Assembly (NCBI GenBank): GCA_963735895.1
Contig: CAVTMQ010000002.1
Coordinates: 305,938-369,937, forward strand
Reading direction: 5' to 3'
Length of the DNA stretch: 64,000 nucleotides
Source: an uncultured Acidobacteriaceae bacterium
GTDB lineage: Bacteria > Acidobacteriota > Terriglobia > Terriglobales > Acidobacteriaceae
This document shows positions 2-53,170 of this stretch, piece by piece. The notes under the pieces are model-generated. The model searched no databases. It was not told the DNA's origin and saw only the letters and a list, made by a program, of their open reading frames with translations. Made by a program: the position numbers and the translations under genes. Positions within the stretch are counted from its first letter, which is position 1, and the number at the start of each line of letters is the position of its first letter.

Positions 2-145
2 ACAGCGACGGAGTTCGAGCACTGGTTTGGCCCATCGGAGCTCAGAATCATCGACTTTGCGCCCCGCCCCTCGACCGGCGTCGCCACCAGTATGTCGAAC
101 ATGAGCGTCGCTGGCCTTACCGGTGCACTGACGGGAGCGGTGTAG
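2..145 (+). CDS. 3' end of a gene running in from the left edge; probable PilM-like pilus/T2SS assembly protein
   Basis: Open frame TATEFEHWFGPSELRIIDFAPRPSTG...AGLTGALTGAV* ends at TAG 143-145, 1 nt before the PilN-like gene. Identity is inferred from operon position only. Confidence 0.5.
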   Translation, partial: TATEFEHWFGPSELRIIDFAPRPSTGVATSMSNMSVAGLTGALTGAV

Positions 146-146
146 A

Positions 147-911
147 GTGCGTGTAGCAATCAATCTCGCCTCACGGCCGTTTGCCGATCTCGCGCCGGCG
201 CTGAAGAACCTGCGCATCGCCATGGGCGCGCTGGCTTTGGTCGCTATCGGCCTCGTCCTCGGCCTCCATGCACTGCACGACAAGGCCGAAGCCGCCCGTA
301 CCCGTGCTCACTCCCTCGACGGAAAGATTGCGCAGATTACCCAGGAGCGCCATGGCTACCAGGCCATGATGCAGCAGCCGGACAATGCCCGCACCCTCCA
401 GCAGGCCGAGAGTCTCAATCAGCTCTTTGACGAGAAATCCTTTTCGTGGACCCTCGCCATGGAAGACCTTGAGACTGTCCTCCCCGCCGGTGTCCAGGTT
501 ACGACCCTTGAACCCACCGTGAAGGGCGACCAAATCACCGTGCGCCTGCGCGTCGCTGGCCCGCGCGATCGTGACGTTGAATTGGTGCAGAACCTTGAAC
601 GCTCACGCCACTTTCTCTTACCGCGCATCGTAGGCGAAACAGCGGAGTCAGAAGGCGGCCCCAATCAGCGCCCCGAGCCGGTAAGCGCTTCGAACCGCGT
701 CAACTTCGACATGCTTGCTGACTACACCCCTGGTGCACCGGAAGAGCGCAAGCTGGCCCGGGAAAAATCTGCCGCCGCATCAAAGGGCCATGGCAATGAC
801 AATCCCGGTGCGGCAATCCCGCAGACGGGGACCGCGTCCGGCCGCTCTCCCCACACCGGCATGCCCCGGCCGCGCGTCCCGTTGCAGCCCAATAGAGGAG
901 CGCCGCGATGA
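147..911 (+). CDS. pilN: PilN-domain (fimbrial assembly/GspL-like) inner-membrane protein
   Basis: INLASRPF N-terminus, one TM helix, coiled coil, then 'W..MEDLETVLPAGVQVTTL' and 'LVQNLERSRHF' ferredoxin-like PilN pattern. Overlaps the next start. Confidence 0.75.
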   Translation: MRVAINLASRPFADLAPALKNLRIAMGALALVAIGLVLGLHALHDKAEAARTRAHSLDGKIAQITQERHGYQAMMQQPDNARTLQQAESLNQLFDEKSFSWTLAMEDLETVLPAGVQVTTLEPTVKGDQITVRLRVAGPRDRDVELVQNLERSRHFLLPRIVGETAESEGGPNQRPEPVSASNRVNFDMLADYTPGAPEERKLAREKSAAASKGHGNDNPGAAIPQTGTASGRSPHTGMPRPRVPLQPNRGAPR

Positions 912-1540
912 GCCCGAATCCCGTCACGGCGCGCGAGCGGCTGGCTTCTCCCTTGACCTGGCACTACGCAGGTCTGGCCATCATGATCCTCATCGTCGCT
1001 GGCCTCGCCATCCGTCTCGGAATGGACTGGTCGGCGACCGACTCCAGTTCGAATGATGCCCTGGTGAACAAGCAAATTGAGCTGAAGACTCTCGAAGTGC
1101 AGACGGCTCCTCTCCGCGGATTGGAAGAGCGCGTGAAACAATCGCGCACCCAGATCCAGGATTTCTACGCAAAGCGCATTCCCGCTAACTACTCCTCCAT
1201 CGCACTGGAGGTTGGAAATCTGAGATTGAAGTCCGGCGTGCTGCTTTCACGTGTGCAGTACACCCAGGGCGCAACCGCGGGCGACCTCACCGAGATCTCG
1301 CTCGACTGTTCCATCAGCGGCGAATACCAGCAGATCATGCAGTTCGTGAATGGCCTCGAACGCGCCAAGACCTTTTTCGTGATTCGCTCGATGGCTTTCA
1401 CAGGCCAGCAGGGCGGACTCGTAAGTTTGCGCCTGCGCGTCTCCACCTGGCTCCGCCCCCCGGACGTGCCGGGTTGGATGACACCGACGCCCGCGGATAC
1501 ACCCGCGACCACGGCTCCGACAGCGCAGGAGGGCGAGTAG
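908..1540 (+). CDS. pilO: PilO/GspM-like assembly protein
   Basis: TM helix plus coiled coil plus '[26 protein letters not shown]' PilO-like motif. ATGA overlap with pilN. Confidence 0.7.
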
Positions 1541-47065: not shown

Positions 47066-48520
47066 ATGCAGATTGTCTTTGCCGCGTCCGAGTGTGTTCC
47101 GTTTGCGAAGTCGGGCGGACTCGCCGATGTGGTGGGTGCGCTGCCCAAGGAAATCTTCAAGTTGGGTCACGAAGTTACGGTTTATCTACCTCTATATGCG
47201 ATAGTTAGATCCAAGTTAACCGGCGAGTTGAAGTTCGCAATCCGATCCATTACGATTCCTTTTCCACATGGGAACCGCTTCGCTGGGATTGTCGATGGCG
47301 GGGTGCACGACGGGGTGAAGTTTTACTTCATAGATTGCCCGGAGATGTTTGATCGGCAGGGATTTTACGGAAGTAATGGCGACAGCTACGGGGACAATGC
47401 CGAGCGCTTTGGCCTTTTCTGCCGGGCAGTGCTGGAGTCGACAAAACTCCTCGGCATGCCGGACATTTTCCACGTACACGACTGGCAGGCCGCACTGATT
47501 CCGGTTCTGCTGCGAACGGTCTACAGCGCCGATCCTGTTCTCAAAAACTGCGGAACAGTGCTTACCATCCATAACGCCGGATACCAGGGATGGTTCCCAC
47601 CAGCAACGACTGAGCAACTGTTGCTTCCGTGGGATATTTTCACCTACGACAAGTTGGAACATTACAACACCTTCAACTTCCTCAAAGGCGGCATCGTCTA
47701 TGCCGATGCGCTTACGACGGTAAGCCCCAGGTATGCAGAGGAGATTCAAACGCCGGAGTTTGGGAACGGTCTCGACGGAGCACTCCGTCAGCGCCGCGCC
47801 GACCTGCATGGCATCCTCAACGGCGTGGACTACGCGGAATGGGACCCCGCGACCGACGGCAACCTTGCCGCGCATTACACGCCTGCAGATCTCTCCGGCA
47901 AGCGCAAATGCCGCAAGGATCTGTTGCACGCCTTCGGTCTCGATGTACCCGAGCAGACGCCTGTGATCGGGATTTGCTCCCGCTTCGCGTCACAGAAGGG
48001 CTTTGACCTCCTGGAGCAGATCGCGAGCCGACTCGCAGAACGCGATGTCGCCGTGGTCGCACTGGGAACGGGAGAACCCTACTACGAGAAGTTCTTTCGC
48101 GACTTTGCCTATTCCAACTCCAGCCATTTTGCCGTCCAGATCCGCTACGACGAAGCTCTCGCGCACAAGGTCGAGGCTGGCGCAGACATTTTTCTAATGC
48201 CAAGCAGATTCGAGCCATGCGGACTGAACCAGATCTATTCCCTCAAGTACGGAACCGTGCCCGTTGTGCGGGCGACCGGCGGGCTTGACGACACGGTGGA
48301 AGAATGGAATCCCGATTTGAATACAGGGACTGGATTCAAGTTCGATCGCTATGATGCACAGGCGCTGCTCGATGTGATTGATCGCGCTCTTGCAGCCTTC
48401 AACGACAAAAAGCAATGGACTCAACTAATGCAGAACGGTATGGCGCAAAACTTCAGCTGGGAAAAACCCTCGCGGGAGTACGCCGCGGTATACGGAGAAG
48501 TGGCGCGGAGGAAAGCTTGA
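47066..48520 (+). CDS. glgA: Glycogen synthase
   Basis: KSGGLADV, HVHDWQ, TIHN, GILNGVDY, QKG, PSRFEPCGLNQ, TGGLDDTV. Confidence 0.96.
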   Translation: MQIVFAASECVPFAKSGGLADVVGALPKEIFKLGHEVTVYLPLYAIVRSKLTGELKFAIRSITIPFPHGNRFAGIVDGGVHDGVKFYFIDCPEMFDRQGFYGSNGDSYGDNAERFGLFCRAVLESTKLLGMPDIFHVHDWQAALIPVLLRTVYSADPVLKNCGTVLTIHNAGYQGWFPPATTEQLLLPWDIFTYDKLEHYNTFNFLKGGIVYADALTTVSPRYAEEIQTPEFGNGLDGALRQRRADLHGILNGVDYAEWDPATDGNLAAHYTPADLSGKRKCRKDLLHAFGLDVPEQTPVIGICSRFASQKGFDLLEQIASRLAERDVAVVALGTGEPYYEKFFRDFAYSNSSHFAVQIRYDEALAHKVEAGADIFLMPSRFEPCGLNQIYSLKYGTVPVVRATGGLDDTVEEWNPDLNTGTGFKFDRYDAQALLDVIDRALAAFNDKKQWTQLMQNGMAQNFSWEKPSREYAAVYGEVARRKA

Positions 48521-48548
48521 AGAAAGTGCTTGGGGCGATTGGAGTGCG

Positions 48549-49028
48549 TTAAGCTCCGTGCCCCAGGGCTTTGGGCACGTCGATGCCGAGGGCCGTGGCG
48601 AGGTCGTGCTGGTGTTCCTGCTCCTGCGAGATGATCATGCGCAACTGCTCGGCCAGGGCATAGTGCCCGAGCGCTTCAGCCTGACGGACGCGTTCGCGAT
48701 AATTCTTGATTGTTACCGTTTCGTTATCCAGATCAAAGCGCAGCATCTCTTCGGGCTTATCGGAGAGCTTTACCTCTTTAGGCGTCGCTGTTGGCATGCC
48801 GCCGAGATAGTCAATCTGATCGGCGATAATGAGCGCGTGCTGCAACTCTTCAGTGGCGTGCTTTCTCAACTCGCCCGCAATGTTCATCCACTGCGCGCCC
48901 TTAAGCACGTTGCTATATACGGTGTATGCGATGATCGCCTGGTATTCGCGAGCGAGATCCTCATTGAGCGCTTTGATTAAGTCCTGAACGGCCTTTTCAT
49001 TCTGCTGGTCATTCTTCTGTTCCGGCAT
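48549..49028 (-). CDS. Ferritin-like (bacterioferritin-type) protein
   Basis: LNEDLAREYQAI, EELQHA..IADQI.YLGG, E..TI..Y, QEQEH ferroxidase-type residues. Confidence 0.85.
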   Translation of the reverse strand: MPEQKNDQQNEKAVQDLIKALNEDLAREYQAIIAYTVYSNVLKGAQWMNIAGELRKHATEELQHALIIADQIDYLGGMPTATPKEVKLSDKPEEMLRFDLDNETVTIKNYRERVRQAEALGHYALAEQLRMIISQEQEHQHDLATALGIDVPKALGHGA

Positions 49029-49782
49029 GTATTCAATCCTCTTTCTCGAGCGAGGCTTCTACCCGCAAACAGAGGTTGTGATGCCAAAGACAAAGAGATT
49101 GTTGGTTCGAACTCATTTGCAGGTCAGTCGCGCACGGCGCTGCTGGAATCACGGGCAGAATGATCTGCGACGAAAGCTGCGCGTCGAGGTAGATCGCATT
49201 GCACCACCTGGGTGCGGCCGATTGTCGTTCAACGGTTCGCCAGCCGATTTGAATATCGCCGACAACATCGAGCGGGCCCGCTATCGCCATGGACCGTCAA
49301 GGCTGAGATGATTAAACAGGGCGAGCGCGTCCAGTTCATCATCGAGATGCACCCACGCCCATGATGTTCAAGAAGGGCACCGCATTCCTTGCCGGTGTGA
49401 ACTTTTTCGATTGGACTGGGCCGCGGCTGATGAAATCTGTGATATTTTGCAAACTGCTGATTCCACAATATCTGGATGGTCAATAAATTGTACATGGCGG
49501 GTTGGCAGCTGTCAGGACGACGAAACGGGCGCTAGTTTGCTGGACCTCGGAAGCACGCTTTCTTCAGCAAGTCTACTGGCGATATTACGCACCTCTGCAT
49601 CATAGTAAGTAGGTATTAGGCGCTGTATTCATTCTTCCCCGGGCCCCTGACCATCTTGTGCGAGCTTGGTTTTTGTTCGCATGCGTAAGTTCGGCTCTAT
49701 GCCATTCAACCAGTGCAGGTCGTCGTTACAGACCAACCTGAAATTCAGGAGACGTGAAATGGTCGAAATCAGGAGATCTGAA

Positions 49783-50373
49783 ATGGGCGCGAAGCTCCTT
49801 CTCGCCCTGGCTGTCAGTTTTGTTTCGCTTTCGTGCACAGCGCAAGTAGTGCCTGCGGTCGTTCGGCCTCGGCTAGCCCCGACAGTTGGCGTAGGAATGA
49901 ACTATTGGTCGGGTGATTGGGGAAGCGGGGACATCAACAGGTGGGGGCCTTCAGCCTGGGCCACCTTATCGATCTTTCATGACCTCAGTGTCATTGCGGA
50001 AGGACACTCCGCGTTCTTTGGTGGAAACCAAAATGCGTCCAATTTCAAATACTTCACGGGCGGAGGCGGCCTCATCTACACCTCGGGATACTGGGGCAGG
50101 TTTCAGCCCTTTGCGAAAGGCGAAGCCGGCTATGCAAGCCTGACGCACCCCTCGAATTTCACCGGCCATTATCACGATACAAGCAATATCTGGACGCTCG
50201 GGGGCGGCGTGGAATACCACACCTGGGGCCAGTGGTGGACGCGAGTGGAGTACTCCTATGATTTCTTTCCGGACTTTCACAGCAGCGTCACCAACCAGAA
50301 CCACACCCTGAATCCGCGAGGCTTCACTTTTGGAGAGACGTATCGTTTCGGTCCGTCAGGCTCCCGTTTCTGA
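49783..50373 (+). CDS. Small outer-membrane beta-barrel protein
   Basis: Signal peptide and amphipathic strands (PFAKGEAG, LGGGVEY, RVEYSY, TYRF). Confidence 0.82.
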   Translation: MGAKLLLALAVSFVSLSCTAQVVPAVVRPRLAPTVGVGMNYWSGDWGSGDINRWGPSAWATLSIFHDLSVIAEGHSAFFGGNQNASNFKYFTGGGGLIYTSGYWGRFQPFAKGEAGYASLTHPSNFTGHYHDTSNIWTLGGGVEYHTWGQWWTRVEYSYDFFPDFHSSVTNQNHTLNPRGFTFGETYRFGPSGSRF

Positions 50374-50456
50374 TCTAACCGGCGCTGCCTAAAAACCTTG
50401 TGTACAACGCAGCATGTCGCTGACCATTCACAAAATCAGCGCAAAATCCAGAGGAC

Positions 50457-50493
50457 ATAAGAAAACCCCGCACAAACAGCGGGGTTTTCTTAT
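50457..50493. terminator. Bidirectional intrinsic terminator
   Basis: Perfect 15-bp inverted repeat ATAAGAAAACCCCGC-N7-GCGGGGTTTTCTTAT. Confidence 0.85.
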
Positions 50494-50718
50494 CGGTAAA
50501 CTGTTGGGATTGGACTAAGGCCATCGCGCTGCCGCGAGTGCCCCCGCATTTTCGCTCTTGCTCTTCGCCGGAGCCCATTCATCCAAGTGCCAATTTCCTT
50601 AAGGAATCGACACCTTGCGATAAGCTGCAAAGGCTACGGTTGAAGGGAAAATGCCTGAGTGACCCGGCCGGTAAAGTCCTTTCCGCCGGGGCTAATCTGG
50701 GGTCTTGGGCGCGATGCC

Positions 50719-50769
50719 CTAGGCCTCAGTCACCTCACGTAAGAAACTACTGGAACAATCATTTTGCAT
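50719..50769 (-). CDS. 16-aa small ORF MQNDCSSSFLREVTEA behind a hyper-extended Shine-Dalgarno
   Basis: GAAAGGAGGTTGATCCAGCC-T-ATG; stop TAG at 50719-50721. Confidence 0.5.
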   Translation of the reverse strand: MQNDCSSSFLREVTEA

Positions 50770-50802
50770 AGGCTGGATCAACCTCCTTTCCCGTGTAGCT
50801 TC

Positions 50803-50831
50803 ACGCTAACGCGGAACCGGTGGCTCGTCAA
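50803..50831 (-). promoter_or_regulatory. Sigma70-type promoter driving the 50457-50797 transcript
   Basis: TTGACG (50831-50826) - 17 nt - TAGCGT (50808-50803). Confidence 0.65.
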
Positions 50832-50868
50832 GTCACAGCAATCTATCTGTTCGGATGGTGAAGAGCTT

Positions 50869-51153
50869 CTACAACCGTTCTTCCAACACCACGCTCACGC
50901 GATCGACGACATCCTTGCCGATCTGTTTGCGAATCTCTTCCTTCACCGGCAGTTTGTGCCTGCCGTCCCCCAAAGCCATGAACGAACTTTGGAACTGCAC
51001 GCTGTCTACCTTGCCGCGCACCTTCACCAGCCCGCGCGTTCCAAAAAATTCCGCAGACTCCGGCCACACAACATAGGTCCATCCACCCTTGTCAGGACTC
51101 TTCTCAAGGATGGCCGTGAATTGTTTGTTCAGTTTTCCACGCGCATTTGCCAT
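50869..51153 (-). CDS. DUF1905-domain protein
   Basis: KGGWTYV....[15 protein letters not shown]...[15 protein letters not shown]...IRK.IGK. Confidence 0.85.
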
Positions 51154-51172
51154 TGTCCACGCGAGTGCTCCG

Positions 51173-52057
51173 CTAAGCCAGAGCCAGGTTCATGTTGTCG
51201 ATGGCTTCGTCGATCTCCTGCGTGCTCTTGAAGCCAACGGTGGCGCAATCGATACCCGCGTGCTGAAACGCGAATCGCATCGCGGCCTGGCGATCTTCAT
51301 GCTTAGTGAAGGTCCCGTCGCCGCAGAGCTTCATGCTGATCACGCCCATGCCCTCGCTTTTGACCTGTTTCACGTGCGCCACAACCTCGGGAATGACGCT
51401 TGGATTGTTCGCGTCTTCCCCAACCGGTGCATCCATGCGCGTACCGTTGTGGTTCATGCGGATCATTGCTACTTCGAGGAACTTGTTTCCGGGCACTTGC
51501 CGCAGCGCCGGCAGACCGTGGACCGAAGCGCCTCGAGTCTTGATGATCTGCTTTGACTGGGCTTCGAGCATGCCGTCCTGCCATTGCTTCGTCTCCGAGA
51601 CCCAGTCGCCGGTGTGCTGCCAATGGAGCAACATGATGTCGAAGTACTCCGTTTGCGAAACTCGGCGCATCTCGTCAAACCGCTTCTGAGGATCAACTCC
51701 CTGATCAGTCGTCACCTTATTCATCAACTGGTAGCTGTCGCGCGGATACGGCTTCAACGCCTCGCCCAGCATCGCGGGCGTCATATACGACTCGGCAGTC
51801 TCGAAGAAACGAATTCCGTGGTCGTAAGCGTAAGCGATCAGCCGCGAAAACTCCTTCTGCCCCAGCGCCGCCTGCACGTGGCCGTTATTGCTGCCTGTGC
51901 CGAAGGCGAGCCGCGTCACTTTCATCCCGGAGTTTCCCAGTGTCACAATGTCAGTAGCTGTACGACGGGTGGCATGCAACGGCAGCGTGCCCACGCTGGC
52001 GGCAGCGCCAGCGACAATCGTGGTCTTCAGAAAATCGCGTCGATTCAACGGGCTCAT
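51173..52057 (-). CDS. Aldo/keto reductase with twin-arginine (Tat) signal
   Basis: NRRDFLK leader; [37 protein letters not shown]. Confidence 0.88.
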
Positions 52058-52246
52058 CGGGACCTCCGTGTTTGGGAAACTGCTCGCGCAGCCTTTAGCC
52101 GAGATGTTAGCACGACGCGGTGAAGATCAGAGGCTGCTAGAGCCTGACGCGGTTTTCAATATTGAACCAGACTCGAAAACCAATTCAGCAGCTATACGAA
52201 GCAAAGGACTTATCATAATGATGGAAATAGAGCCTGCCCTGCTCGG

Positions 52247-53170
52247 ATGAAGAAACCGCACACACTTCTCTATTACGCGCCGTTGGTGATTCTGTCCCTT
52301 CTGCTTGCGTTTTATCCGGGTATATCCGGCGACCCCACACCACCCAAAGCGCCTCCATTTCCGTCCGGCGCCCCCGATGTTCGCTTACCTTTGAAGCCCG
52401 GGTCGGTGCGCTGGGCGGTGATTGGCGACAACGGCACCGGCGAGCAGCCCGAAATGGAAATTGCAAATCAGATGGAGCGTTACTGGTCCGTGGTGAAGTA
52501 CGACTTCGTCACCATGGACGGCGACAACATCTACGGCGATCATTCGCCCGAAGACTTCCGAATCAAGTTTGAAGATCCTTACAGACCGCTGCTGGATGAG
52601 GGCGTTCGATTCTATGCGTCGCTGGGCAACCACGACGACGCGAAGATCGAGGTGAGTTACAAGCCTTACAACATGAATGGCAACCGCTACTACACGTTTC
52701 AGAAAGGAAACGTGGAGTTCTTCGTCCTGGACAGCACTGTGATGACTCCGCAGCAGCTCTCGTGGCTTGAGGAGCAATTAAAAGCCTCCACTGCTCAGTG
52801 GAAGATCGCCTATTTCCATCACCCGCTGTTTACCTGCGCCATGTTTCACGGGCCCTCAGTGAATCTCCGCAAACAGCTCATGCCGCTCTTCACCAAATAC
52901 GGAGTCAACGCTGTCTGGAGCGGACACGAGCACGTCTACGAGCGCCTCAAGCCGCAAAGCGGGATCTATTTCTTCCTCGAAGGCGAGTCCGGTCAACTTC
53001 GCTATAACAACATTCGCCGTTCCTGCGATCTCGACCAGGCCAGGTTCGATACGGACCGCACCTTCATGCTGGTCGAAGTTGACGGCGCCGTCATGTACTT
53101 CCAGACCATCGCGCGCTCCGGCGCCATTGTGGACACCGGGAGTCTCACGCTACAAAGCACGCAAAAGTAG
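52247..53170 (+). CDS. Exported calcineurin-like metallophosphoesterase (purple-acid-phosphatase-like)
   Basis: IGDNG, GDNIY, LGNHD, FHHP, SGHEHVYER. Confidence 0.92.
   Translation: MKKPHTLLYYAPLVILSLLLAFYPGISGDPTPPKAPPFPSGAPDVRLPLKPGSVRWAVIGDNGTGEQPEMEIANQMERYWSVVKYDFVTMDGDNIYGDHSPEDFRIKFEDPYRPLLDEGVRFYASLGNHDDAKIEVSYKPYNMNGNRYYTFQKGNVEFFVLDSTVMTPQQLSWLEEQLKASTAQWKIAYFHHPLFTCAMFHGPSVNLRKQLMPLFTKYGVNAVWSGHEHVYERLKPQSGIYFFLEGESGQLRYNNIRRSCDLDQARFDTDRTFMLVEVDGAVMYFQTIARSGAIVDTGSLTLQSTQK

Follow-up and report, generated by a model that had tools for sequence, protein, structure and literature searches.

A conserved small RNA gene of Acidobacteria with two matches to the 16S rRNA tail, distantly related to Ms_IGR-5

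The described systems closest to the RNA analysed here are Ms_IGR-5 (RF02471; Actinobacteria), which is IGR-5 of Mycobacterium smegmatis, and the rre messages. Ribosome-protected reads of Ms_IGR-5 in mycobacteria are reported in PMC4974804. IGR-5 is described as a stand-alone transcript in PMC8780764 and PMC8079986 and as a longer transcript in PMC10454040, and the NAD-capped RNA is called 'uncharacterized' in a preprint (bioRxiv 2021.12.14.472595). According to PMC5711450, rreB co-sediments with 30S, binds tightly and is translated weakly; its half-life rises from 10 to 37 min without the start codon, with a shorter product; twentyfold overexpression leaves growth unchanged; the RreB and RreR peptides are unstructured; and rreB has no known function in that account. 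CC2171 (RF01867, Alphaproteobacteria) has been validated by Northern blotting (bioRxiv 2022.01.24.477521) and appears as a table row in PMC11701678. No paper on the second Shine–Dalgarno (SD) tract, on helix P0 (both described below) or on the acidobacterial RNA was found in the open-access literature; the main text of PMC11109978, in the part available, leaves Acidobacteria unmentioned, and its supplement may bear on the subject. Rae1 (PMC10351889, in part) was considered and found not to be relevant to this RNA.

The window is the whole stretch of 64,000 nucleotides analysed here, from an uncultured Acidobacteriaceae bacterium (GCA_963735895.1, contig CAVTMQ010000002.1). All features of the RNA lie on its minus strand. 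A first-pass annotation of the window had proposed a promoter, an extended SD, a 16-codon ORF, a fold and a terminator, and inspection of the sequence located each of these elements where it had been placed. The sigma-70-type promoter TTGACG-17-TAGCGT (50803..50831) consists of TTGACG at 50831-50826, a 17-nt spacer and TAGCGT at 50808-50803, and is supported by its sequence and by conservation upstream of homologues: a -35 TTG with a -10 TANNNT occurs in 183 of 187 distinct homologous upstream regions, and in 0/187 when the control window is placed 50 nt further up. A consensus promoter/terminator scan flagged neither the promoter (8/12 matches) nor the terminator of the locus. The putative 5' end is marked by a conserved (U)ACAC leader (50791..50797), and ACAC is also present in the Ms_IGR-5 consensus. 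Homology begins at 50797 in most relatives, from which the start site itself is inferred.

The unit is preceded on the same strand by a DUF1905 gene, and the gene on its 3' side encodes a convergent outer-membrane beta-barrel protein (49666-50373). Among the proteins downstream of 13 hand-picked loci, ten had a Pfam match, six of them on the same strand and four convergent; the same-strand genes at various loci encode ThiG, RuvC, DinB, ADH, NUDIX and GH18, and a convergent downstream gene is also found at L004, L010, L013 and L356. Even inside the genus the downstream genes are unrelated to each other. A cruder tally of ORF orientation (86 loci: 45 opposite, 37 same, four none) includes shadow ORFs and was not relied on. 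Because the neighbours differ and face both ways, the RNA is taken to be a free-standing gene and not a leader; the earlier view of a self-contained transcription unit thus stands, with its own promoter, its own terminator and unrelated neighbours. By these comparative signs, the locus is a real stand-alone small RNA gene that is conserved across Acidobacteria.

Using blastn, the unit was found in 57 of 60 genomes of the same genus, with homology from 50797 to 50494, and in 0/40 genomes outside the genus, a figure that marks a limit of sensitivity since sequence patterns find the element there. A pattern combining the first SD tract (SD1) with the start codon matched at least 117 loci in GTDB contigs, with about 590 stretches estimated. 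Acidobacterial labels were carried by 112 of these 117 loci among the matches listed, including Terracidiphilus, Occallatibacter, Terriglobus, Granulicella, Edaphobacter and Acidobacterium. Three of the five loci with other labels are typical of Acidobacteriaceae in sequence and are probably mislabelled; the remaining two, labelled Rokubacteria and Chloroflexota, are distinct sequences. A looser pattern gave matches, background included, in 115 of 401 genomes of the phylum (a tally that includes the unpublished G255), and a strict two-SD pattern gave 0/151 in the phylum of G102.

The window genome (G000) carries three copies. The paralogues, at G000:C1 about 521071-521366 (-) (L002) and G000:C10 about 286818-287150 (-) (L066), are of the long form, with an intact promoter, a 16-codon frame ending in REVAVA, helix P0 and a weaker SD1 that lacks the helix-45 complement. 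Decayed copies were also recognized (L045, L069, L084, L171 and L410), in which the start codon was lost, the frame was shifted, or the stop was lost and the 3' domain replaced. No match was found in the phage collection, and one of 41 pattern matches in viral contigs was a real copy. L333, a complete copy of the acidobacterial type, lies close to the end of a viral contig of 42 kb, where it may be host flank or a carried gene. The plasmid blast returned mostly short matches, likely 16S ends.

SD1 (50771..50790) is an extended complement of the 16S 3' end, with 9 bp, a bulge and 5 bp on the free tail and five more reaching into helix 45. With a 16S end that was taken from four of five relatives and ends in GAUCACC, the calculated duplex amounts to -20.5 kcal/mol on the free tail and to -35.3 kcal/mol with helix 45 included. 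The 19-nt complement of the 16S end occurs at a single place in the 5.2-Mb genome within two edits, and just one other site in the genome surpasses SD1 in pairing with the last 23 nt of 16S. The super-SD proposed by the first-pass annotation is therefore present as a long complementarity, which is imperfect in that one base is bulged. The distance from SD1 (after GGAGG) to the AUG is 12 nt in 172 of 202 loci. The paralogues, several acidobacterial families and Ms_IGR-5 have lost the helix-45 part (CAGCC); as it is not kept outside the main Acidobacteriaceae copy, helix-45 invasion was rejected as a general function. Two more GAAAGGAGGUGAG tracts, neither with an adjacent AUG, are present in the window genome at C2 243244 (+) and C3 499117 (-), the former preceded by CACCUCC, which could sequester it. 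They are possibly further small genes.

The ORF MQNDCSSSFLREVTEA followed by UAG (50719..50769, 16 codons) is supported by conservation of its frame. A 16-codon frame was present in all 31 loci found at the outset, and among 202 loci with both SD motifs, 167 of the 168 distinct segments from the start codon to the second SD tract (SD2) are in frame. In-frame stops were found in 0/168 segments, where shuffles lead one to expect 89 ± 6, so the frame is held open by selection; the translated ORF of the first-pass annotation is borne out to this extent. Frame lengths range between 11 and 22 aa and differ by multiples of three bases. REVTEA is encoded in 107 of the 117 GTDB loci among the matches listed, and in 114 ORFs of 14–20 aa, again among the matches listed, the codons of the conserved end are CGT (109), GAG (113), GTG (113), ACT (108) and GAG (109), with very few synonymous changes in REVTE. 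Only GAG GTG is constant throughout the phylum, where the last three residues vary freely. By these patterns, translation is under selection and the peptide sequence mostly is not.

At least one Cys is encoded by 134 of the 168 segments, and the composition before SD2 (Ser 25%, Arg 11%, Cys 11%, Asp 8%, Lys 7%) is not that of the hydrophobic membrane peptide of a type I toxin mRNA. The idea of a type I toxin or signalling peptide, raised in the earlier annotation, fares poorly: the peptide is hydrophilic, its middle is variable and its conserved end shows next to no synonymous change. No antisense promoter for an antitoxin was flagged by the consensus scan, the same scan that missed the real promoter. 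In the middles of the ORFs, one alternative frame contains a stop in 140/168 segments and the other in 14/168. The U of GUGAGG is invariant despite its mismatch to the 16S tail.

The codons of the conserved end coincide with SD2, GUGAGGUGA (50730..50738), which was identified by conservation and in which GAGGUG stands 9 nt before the stop codon. Its calculated duplex with the free 16S tail is -11.4 kcal/mol. It lies in frame in 115 of the 117 GTDB loci among the matches listed. The spacing was also assessed at loci picked on SD1 alone, for which 33 looser-pattern matches with an unbulged SD1 were available and 32 were examined, G255 being left out. An in-frame GAGGUG followed by exactly 9 nt and a stop was found in 26 of the 32, from six families, three of these 26 also carrying an earlier GAGGUG; the remaining six lack SD2 and resemble chance matches in coding DNA. 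The same arrangement is present in a Rokubacteria-labelled contig.

SD2 has a second potential partner within the RNA. The 3' tail CAGUUUACC (50495..50503; family consensus CAG-N-UCACC) mimics the 16S end and provides the 3' strand of helix P0, in which 50727..50734 pairs with 50503-50495, as supported by covariation. Between P1 and P0 lies the conserved loop CAAUCCCAA (50504..50512), which is invariant in 25 of 25 short same-genus copies and reads AAUuCC in Ms_IGR-5. Over 16 types of SD2, P0 was more stable with the RNA's own tails (-11.7 kcal/mol) than with swapped tails (-9.2 ± 0.6 kcal/mol; 0/2000 permutations); this advantage over the mean foreign tail is seen in just 43 of 62 distinct pairs, the Acidobacteriaceae tails being among the weak ones. 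In 33 acidobacterial-type rows, 92.8% of cells are paired and two of eight pairs are changed on both sides; in 19 Ms_IGR-5-type rows the values are 95.9% and four of nine, figures which come from hand-picked alignments and in which kinship among the sequences inflates covariation and pair counts. Slid controls gave far lower pairing. Pair 9-157 is unpaired in 16 of the 33 rows because the bulge floats. The P0 of the window is weak, at -6.0 kcal/mol alone, and forcing it costs 2.6 kcal/mol relative to the best fold. That GAGGUG never changes fits a second, invariant partner, 16S, reading the same motif. With homologues across Acidobacteriota and two-sided changes in P0, the wide conservation with covariation that the earlier annotation had named as a check is in evidence. 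That annotation had overlooked SD2, with its constant spacing to the stop and its pairing with the tail, as well as the paralogous copies and the hints that the 3' end is used for integration.

The predicted 341-nt RNA is more stable than 100 of 100 shuffles (z -3.25, terminator included), and without the terminator and the 5' part z is -1.95 on the minus strand against -0.26 on the plus strand. Helix P1 covers the stop codon, and a comparison of registers across clades pairs its 5' strand 50709..50722 with 50529-50515. The closing helix originally described consists of an alternative register, a 10-bp complement of 50731-50722 with 50522-50513 that excludes P0, continued by a second half, 50715-50709 with 50529-50523. 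Both halves do pair, as two near-equal registers (within 0.3 kcal/mol in the window) and not as one continuous helix. In a crude comparison of 29 hand-picked loci, the original register was the stronger in 11, mostly Acidobacteriaceae, and the shifted one in 18. RNAalifold returned the original register for 25 short same-genus copies, with no two-sided change in its ten pairs, from an alignment that ends before the tail and leaves P0 outside its reach. According to these models, the window RNA can adopt two folds of nearly the same stability where the ribosome would terminate.

An inner hairpin (50661..50697; originally about 50690-50663) is common to the short and long forms. The inner stem drawn before, 50654-50647 with 50553-50546, falls within an optional 115-nt insert (50543..50657), which has GCAUUUUC/GAAAAUGC as its closing stem and represents the domain of the long paralogues in shortened form. 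The insert is missing in close relatives (by blastn, query 45-203 joins 319-367); 133 of 154 copies are short and 17 long. The closing stem of the long-paralogue domain recurs with changes in the long-form alignment, and inner domains are unrelated between clades. A multibranch domain of ~220 nt as the core of the RNA, as had been supposed, is not supported, since most homologues do without 50543-50657. From the sequence alignments, the transcript is predicted to be about 340 nt here and about 225 nt in most relatives.

The terminator of the window is a perfect 15-bp hairpin (50457..50493; 50493-50479 with 50471-50457) of a type seen beside tyrosine integrases, which is not the usual one of the family; this type was found in ten loci. 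At L008, a tyrosine integrase (124-1329 (-); Pfam E 2.8e-17) directly follows the terminator, similar integrase-like starts were recognized by eye at L025, L090 and L130, and at L058 the 3' end of the RNA is duplicated 1.5 kb downstream. Mobile elements likely use the 3' end as their attachment site, and the terminator of the window would be a relic of an integrated element. A short frame and use as an integration site are also features of tmRNA.

In the peat metatranscriptome X3, 93 contigs from relatives fell on bins 50461-50817 with a summed word depth of up to 14,500; tmRNA in the same run reached 76,000. None of the listed pieces or loose ends extends to the promoter, and the absence of flank cover carries no meaning as flanks differ between relatives. 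Depth in runs X1, X2 and X4 was about 10 or less, and contigs of X1 and X4 enter the promoter or flank and may be DNA. X3 places the family in an RNA library and says nothing on the ends, strand or level of the window gene.

The comparison of sequences establishes the promoter, the open frame, SD1, SD2 at a fixed distance from the stop, and P0, and with SD1 and a translated frame it lends weight to the earlier claim that the RNA is built to engage the ribosome. Our main reading, to which we give a probability of roughly one half, is a switch operated by translation, in which two matches to the 16S tail would keep a ribosome on the RNA's own stop codon. Given its 12-nt spacing, SD1 is predicted to load 30S tightly with weak initiation; the combination of tight binding and weak translation has been shown only for rreB. 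Ribosomes would likely run through the 16-codon frame to the stop. At rest, SD2 would be paired with the RNA's own 3' tail in P0 and the stop codon would lie inside P1, and both helices would melt as the ribosome arrives. Once the stop is in the A site, SD2 (its GAGG end) would stand 8 nt upstream of the P-site codon, a spacing like that of initiation, for which 5–9 nt is given as canonical (Hahn et al., PMC5711450), and the 16S tail could take the place of the RNA's tail. The ribosome would then be retained on the RNA during or after termination, with the downstream rod freed. RNA and ribosome together, rather than the peptide, would form the working unit, which would park ribosomes or report on termination or recycling. 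Against the switch, rreB-type loci lack an exact SD2 (0/6), so the class does not need it everywhere, and growth was unaffected by rreB overexpression (PMC5711450). Slowing of ribosomes by internal SD tracts is disputed.

The RNA might instead be a throttled mRNA with the 16-aa peptide as its product, either a regulator or a stalling peptide with EV three residues from the end. The strong selection on the frame, the recurrence of REVTEA and of Cys, and the weak translation of rreB speak for such a product, which we nevertheless regard as unlikely given REVTE codons almost free of synonymous change, a length of 11–22 aa, a middle and last three residues that change freely across the phylum, and the lack of structure in RreB and RreR and of any growth effect of extra RreB (PMC5711450). 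A role of translation in setting the half-life or processing of the RNA, as in the rre model, with a released folded 3' piece acting on another partner, would accommodate the longer half-life and shorter product of rreB without its start codon and the large clade-specific folded domains inside the rod; one RNA run is also far deeper over 50716-50766 than over 50767-50817, a weak sign as contigs cannot show ends. It is likewise improbable in our view, because the inner domains are dispensable and unrelated between clades and the elements constant across phyla are SD1, SD2, the stop and the tail.

SD1 could also be the sole active part, making the RNA a simple sponge for 30S or a guide that pairs antisense with the 16S 3' end and possibly opens helix 45. 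Such a role would agree with the rank of SD1 in the genome and with the deep RNA of relatives in one peat run, yet it leaves the kept frame, SD2 and P0 unexplained; the loss of CAGCC in the paralogues, several acidobacterial families and Ms_IGR-5, and the unslowed growth under twentyfold rreB overexpression (PMC5711450), make it decidedly unlikely. Least to be expected is a leader-peptide attenuator of the downstream gene: the order of promoter, small ORF, alternative helices and terminator suits one and same-strand downstream genes do occur, but the next gene is convergent in the window and at the four further loci named above, no same-strand downstream operon is constant and the downstream genes are unrelated within the genus, so that we consider it very improbable. 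Should the switch reading hold, the RNA would be a widespread bacterial RNA acting on terminating ribosomes. A bolder extension, which we hold to be doubtful, is an unrecognised and abundant housekeeping RNA of several phyla: Acidobacteriota, Actinobacteria (there known as Ms_IGR-5) and Rokubacteria, the rre messages of Alphaproteobacteria being a reduced branch. It would capture ribosomes at the start, exchange its 16S-mimic tail for the real 16S tail at the stop and so park or sense ribosomes after termination, taking a place beside tmRNA as an RNA that acts in hibernation or recycling.

The locus was compared with known families at several levels. Rfam returned for 48000-53000 at E <= 10 just leader matches driven by the terminator (best E 0.57), so that no family match reached threshold, in line with the first-pass annotation, and ARAGORN returned nothing on the locus. 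tmRNA, 6S, SRP RNA and RNase P RNA are also stand-alone folded RNAs; none of their models matched the locus, as had been noted by eye. In the window genome, tmRNA, SRP RNA and a weak 6S match lie elsewhere, and L032 (G000:C5:207940-208127 +) is a full-length 6S match of 38.8 bits (Rfam cut-off 46.4); RNase P went undetected in this genome, which is 85% complete, but was found in five of five complete relatives. With the Ms_IGR-5 model (gathering cut-off 45 bits), the region gave no match at E <= 10 and the genome none at E <= 1.

A metagenome pattern of SD1, SD2, 9 nt and TRR, which has SD2 and the stop built in and is thus no test of spacing, matched 117 loci, and 15 of 20 hand-picked ones pass the Ms_IGR-5 cut-off. 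Of the loci with 5' features outside the pattern, 56/56 have a true stop (TGG being allowed) and 54/56 an in-frame start; 16 of the other 61 have both. An HMM built from acidobacterial copies only scored all 15 Rfam-positive Ms_IGR-5 loci at 12.5–36.6 bits and 45 of the 61 other pattern matches at 2 bits or less, a test of homology with some circularity, SD1/SD2 terms having been used to find the loci. CC2171 (gathering score 75 bits) gave no match at the locus, distant homologues scoring 15–22 bits over SD1 only, and 0/61 genomes in the class of G103, which is probably not Alphaproteobacteria. Six of nine rre-type loci score with CC2171, below the cut-off; GAGGUG with 9 nt and a stop occurs in 0/6 of these and GAGGUC with 6 nt and a stop in 3/6. 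In L416, L422 and L424 (rreB/CC2171-type), the frames end in GAG GUC, two codons and a stop (EVAR, EVRA), an echo of the EVAAR of Ms_IGR-5.

The rreB/rreR messages resemble the window RNA as stand-alone small mRNAs whose complementarity to the 16S end is extended and whose frame, of 14–18 aa in rre (PMC5711450), is conserved, and the CC2171 consensus opens with the same SD1. In rre, a perfect complementarity of 16–17 nt runs into a GUG start, with an ATG exception noted in Azospirillum (PMC5711450), whereas the window RNA has 9 bp, a bulge and 10 bp, 12-nt spacing and AUG, short of the >=16 nt of perfect pairing by which rre is defined. The Ms_IGR-5 and rreB/CC2171 types possibly form one deeper clan. 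With Ms_IGR-5, the window RNA has the same parts in the same order: the ACAC 5' end, an extended SD1, a short frame, GUGAGGUG with 9 nt and UAG, a helix over the stop, the AAU-CC loop and the CAG-UCACC tail before the terminator. It differs in its phylum, its bulged SD1 and P0, a far larger rod with optional domains, its three paralogues and an AUG start with 16 codons, compared with the mostly UUG start and the unannotated frame of about 12 codons of Ms_IGR-5-type loci (L188-L304), which also have the P0 helix. As the Rfam threshold was not reached, these likenesses in sequence identify the window RNA as a distant homologue of Ms_IGR-5 and not a member, and the 'new system' of the first-pass annotation becomes a distant relative of Ms_IGR-5 that resembles rreB. 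The Rfam consensus structure of Ms_IGR-5 contains neither P0 nor the ORF and pairs SD1 with the SD2 region; the two SD tracts, the fixed distance from SD to stop and the 16S-mimicking tail are absent from that model and from the literature found, and with this anatomy an orphan RNA of several phyla becomes open to direct testing. Both Ms_IGR-5 and rreB come from well-studied lineages and are catalogued as orphans, and the present locus extends their class to a dominant soil phylum.
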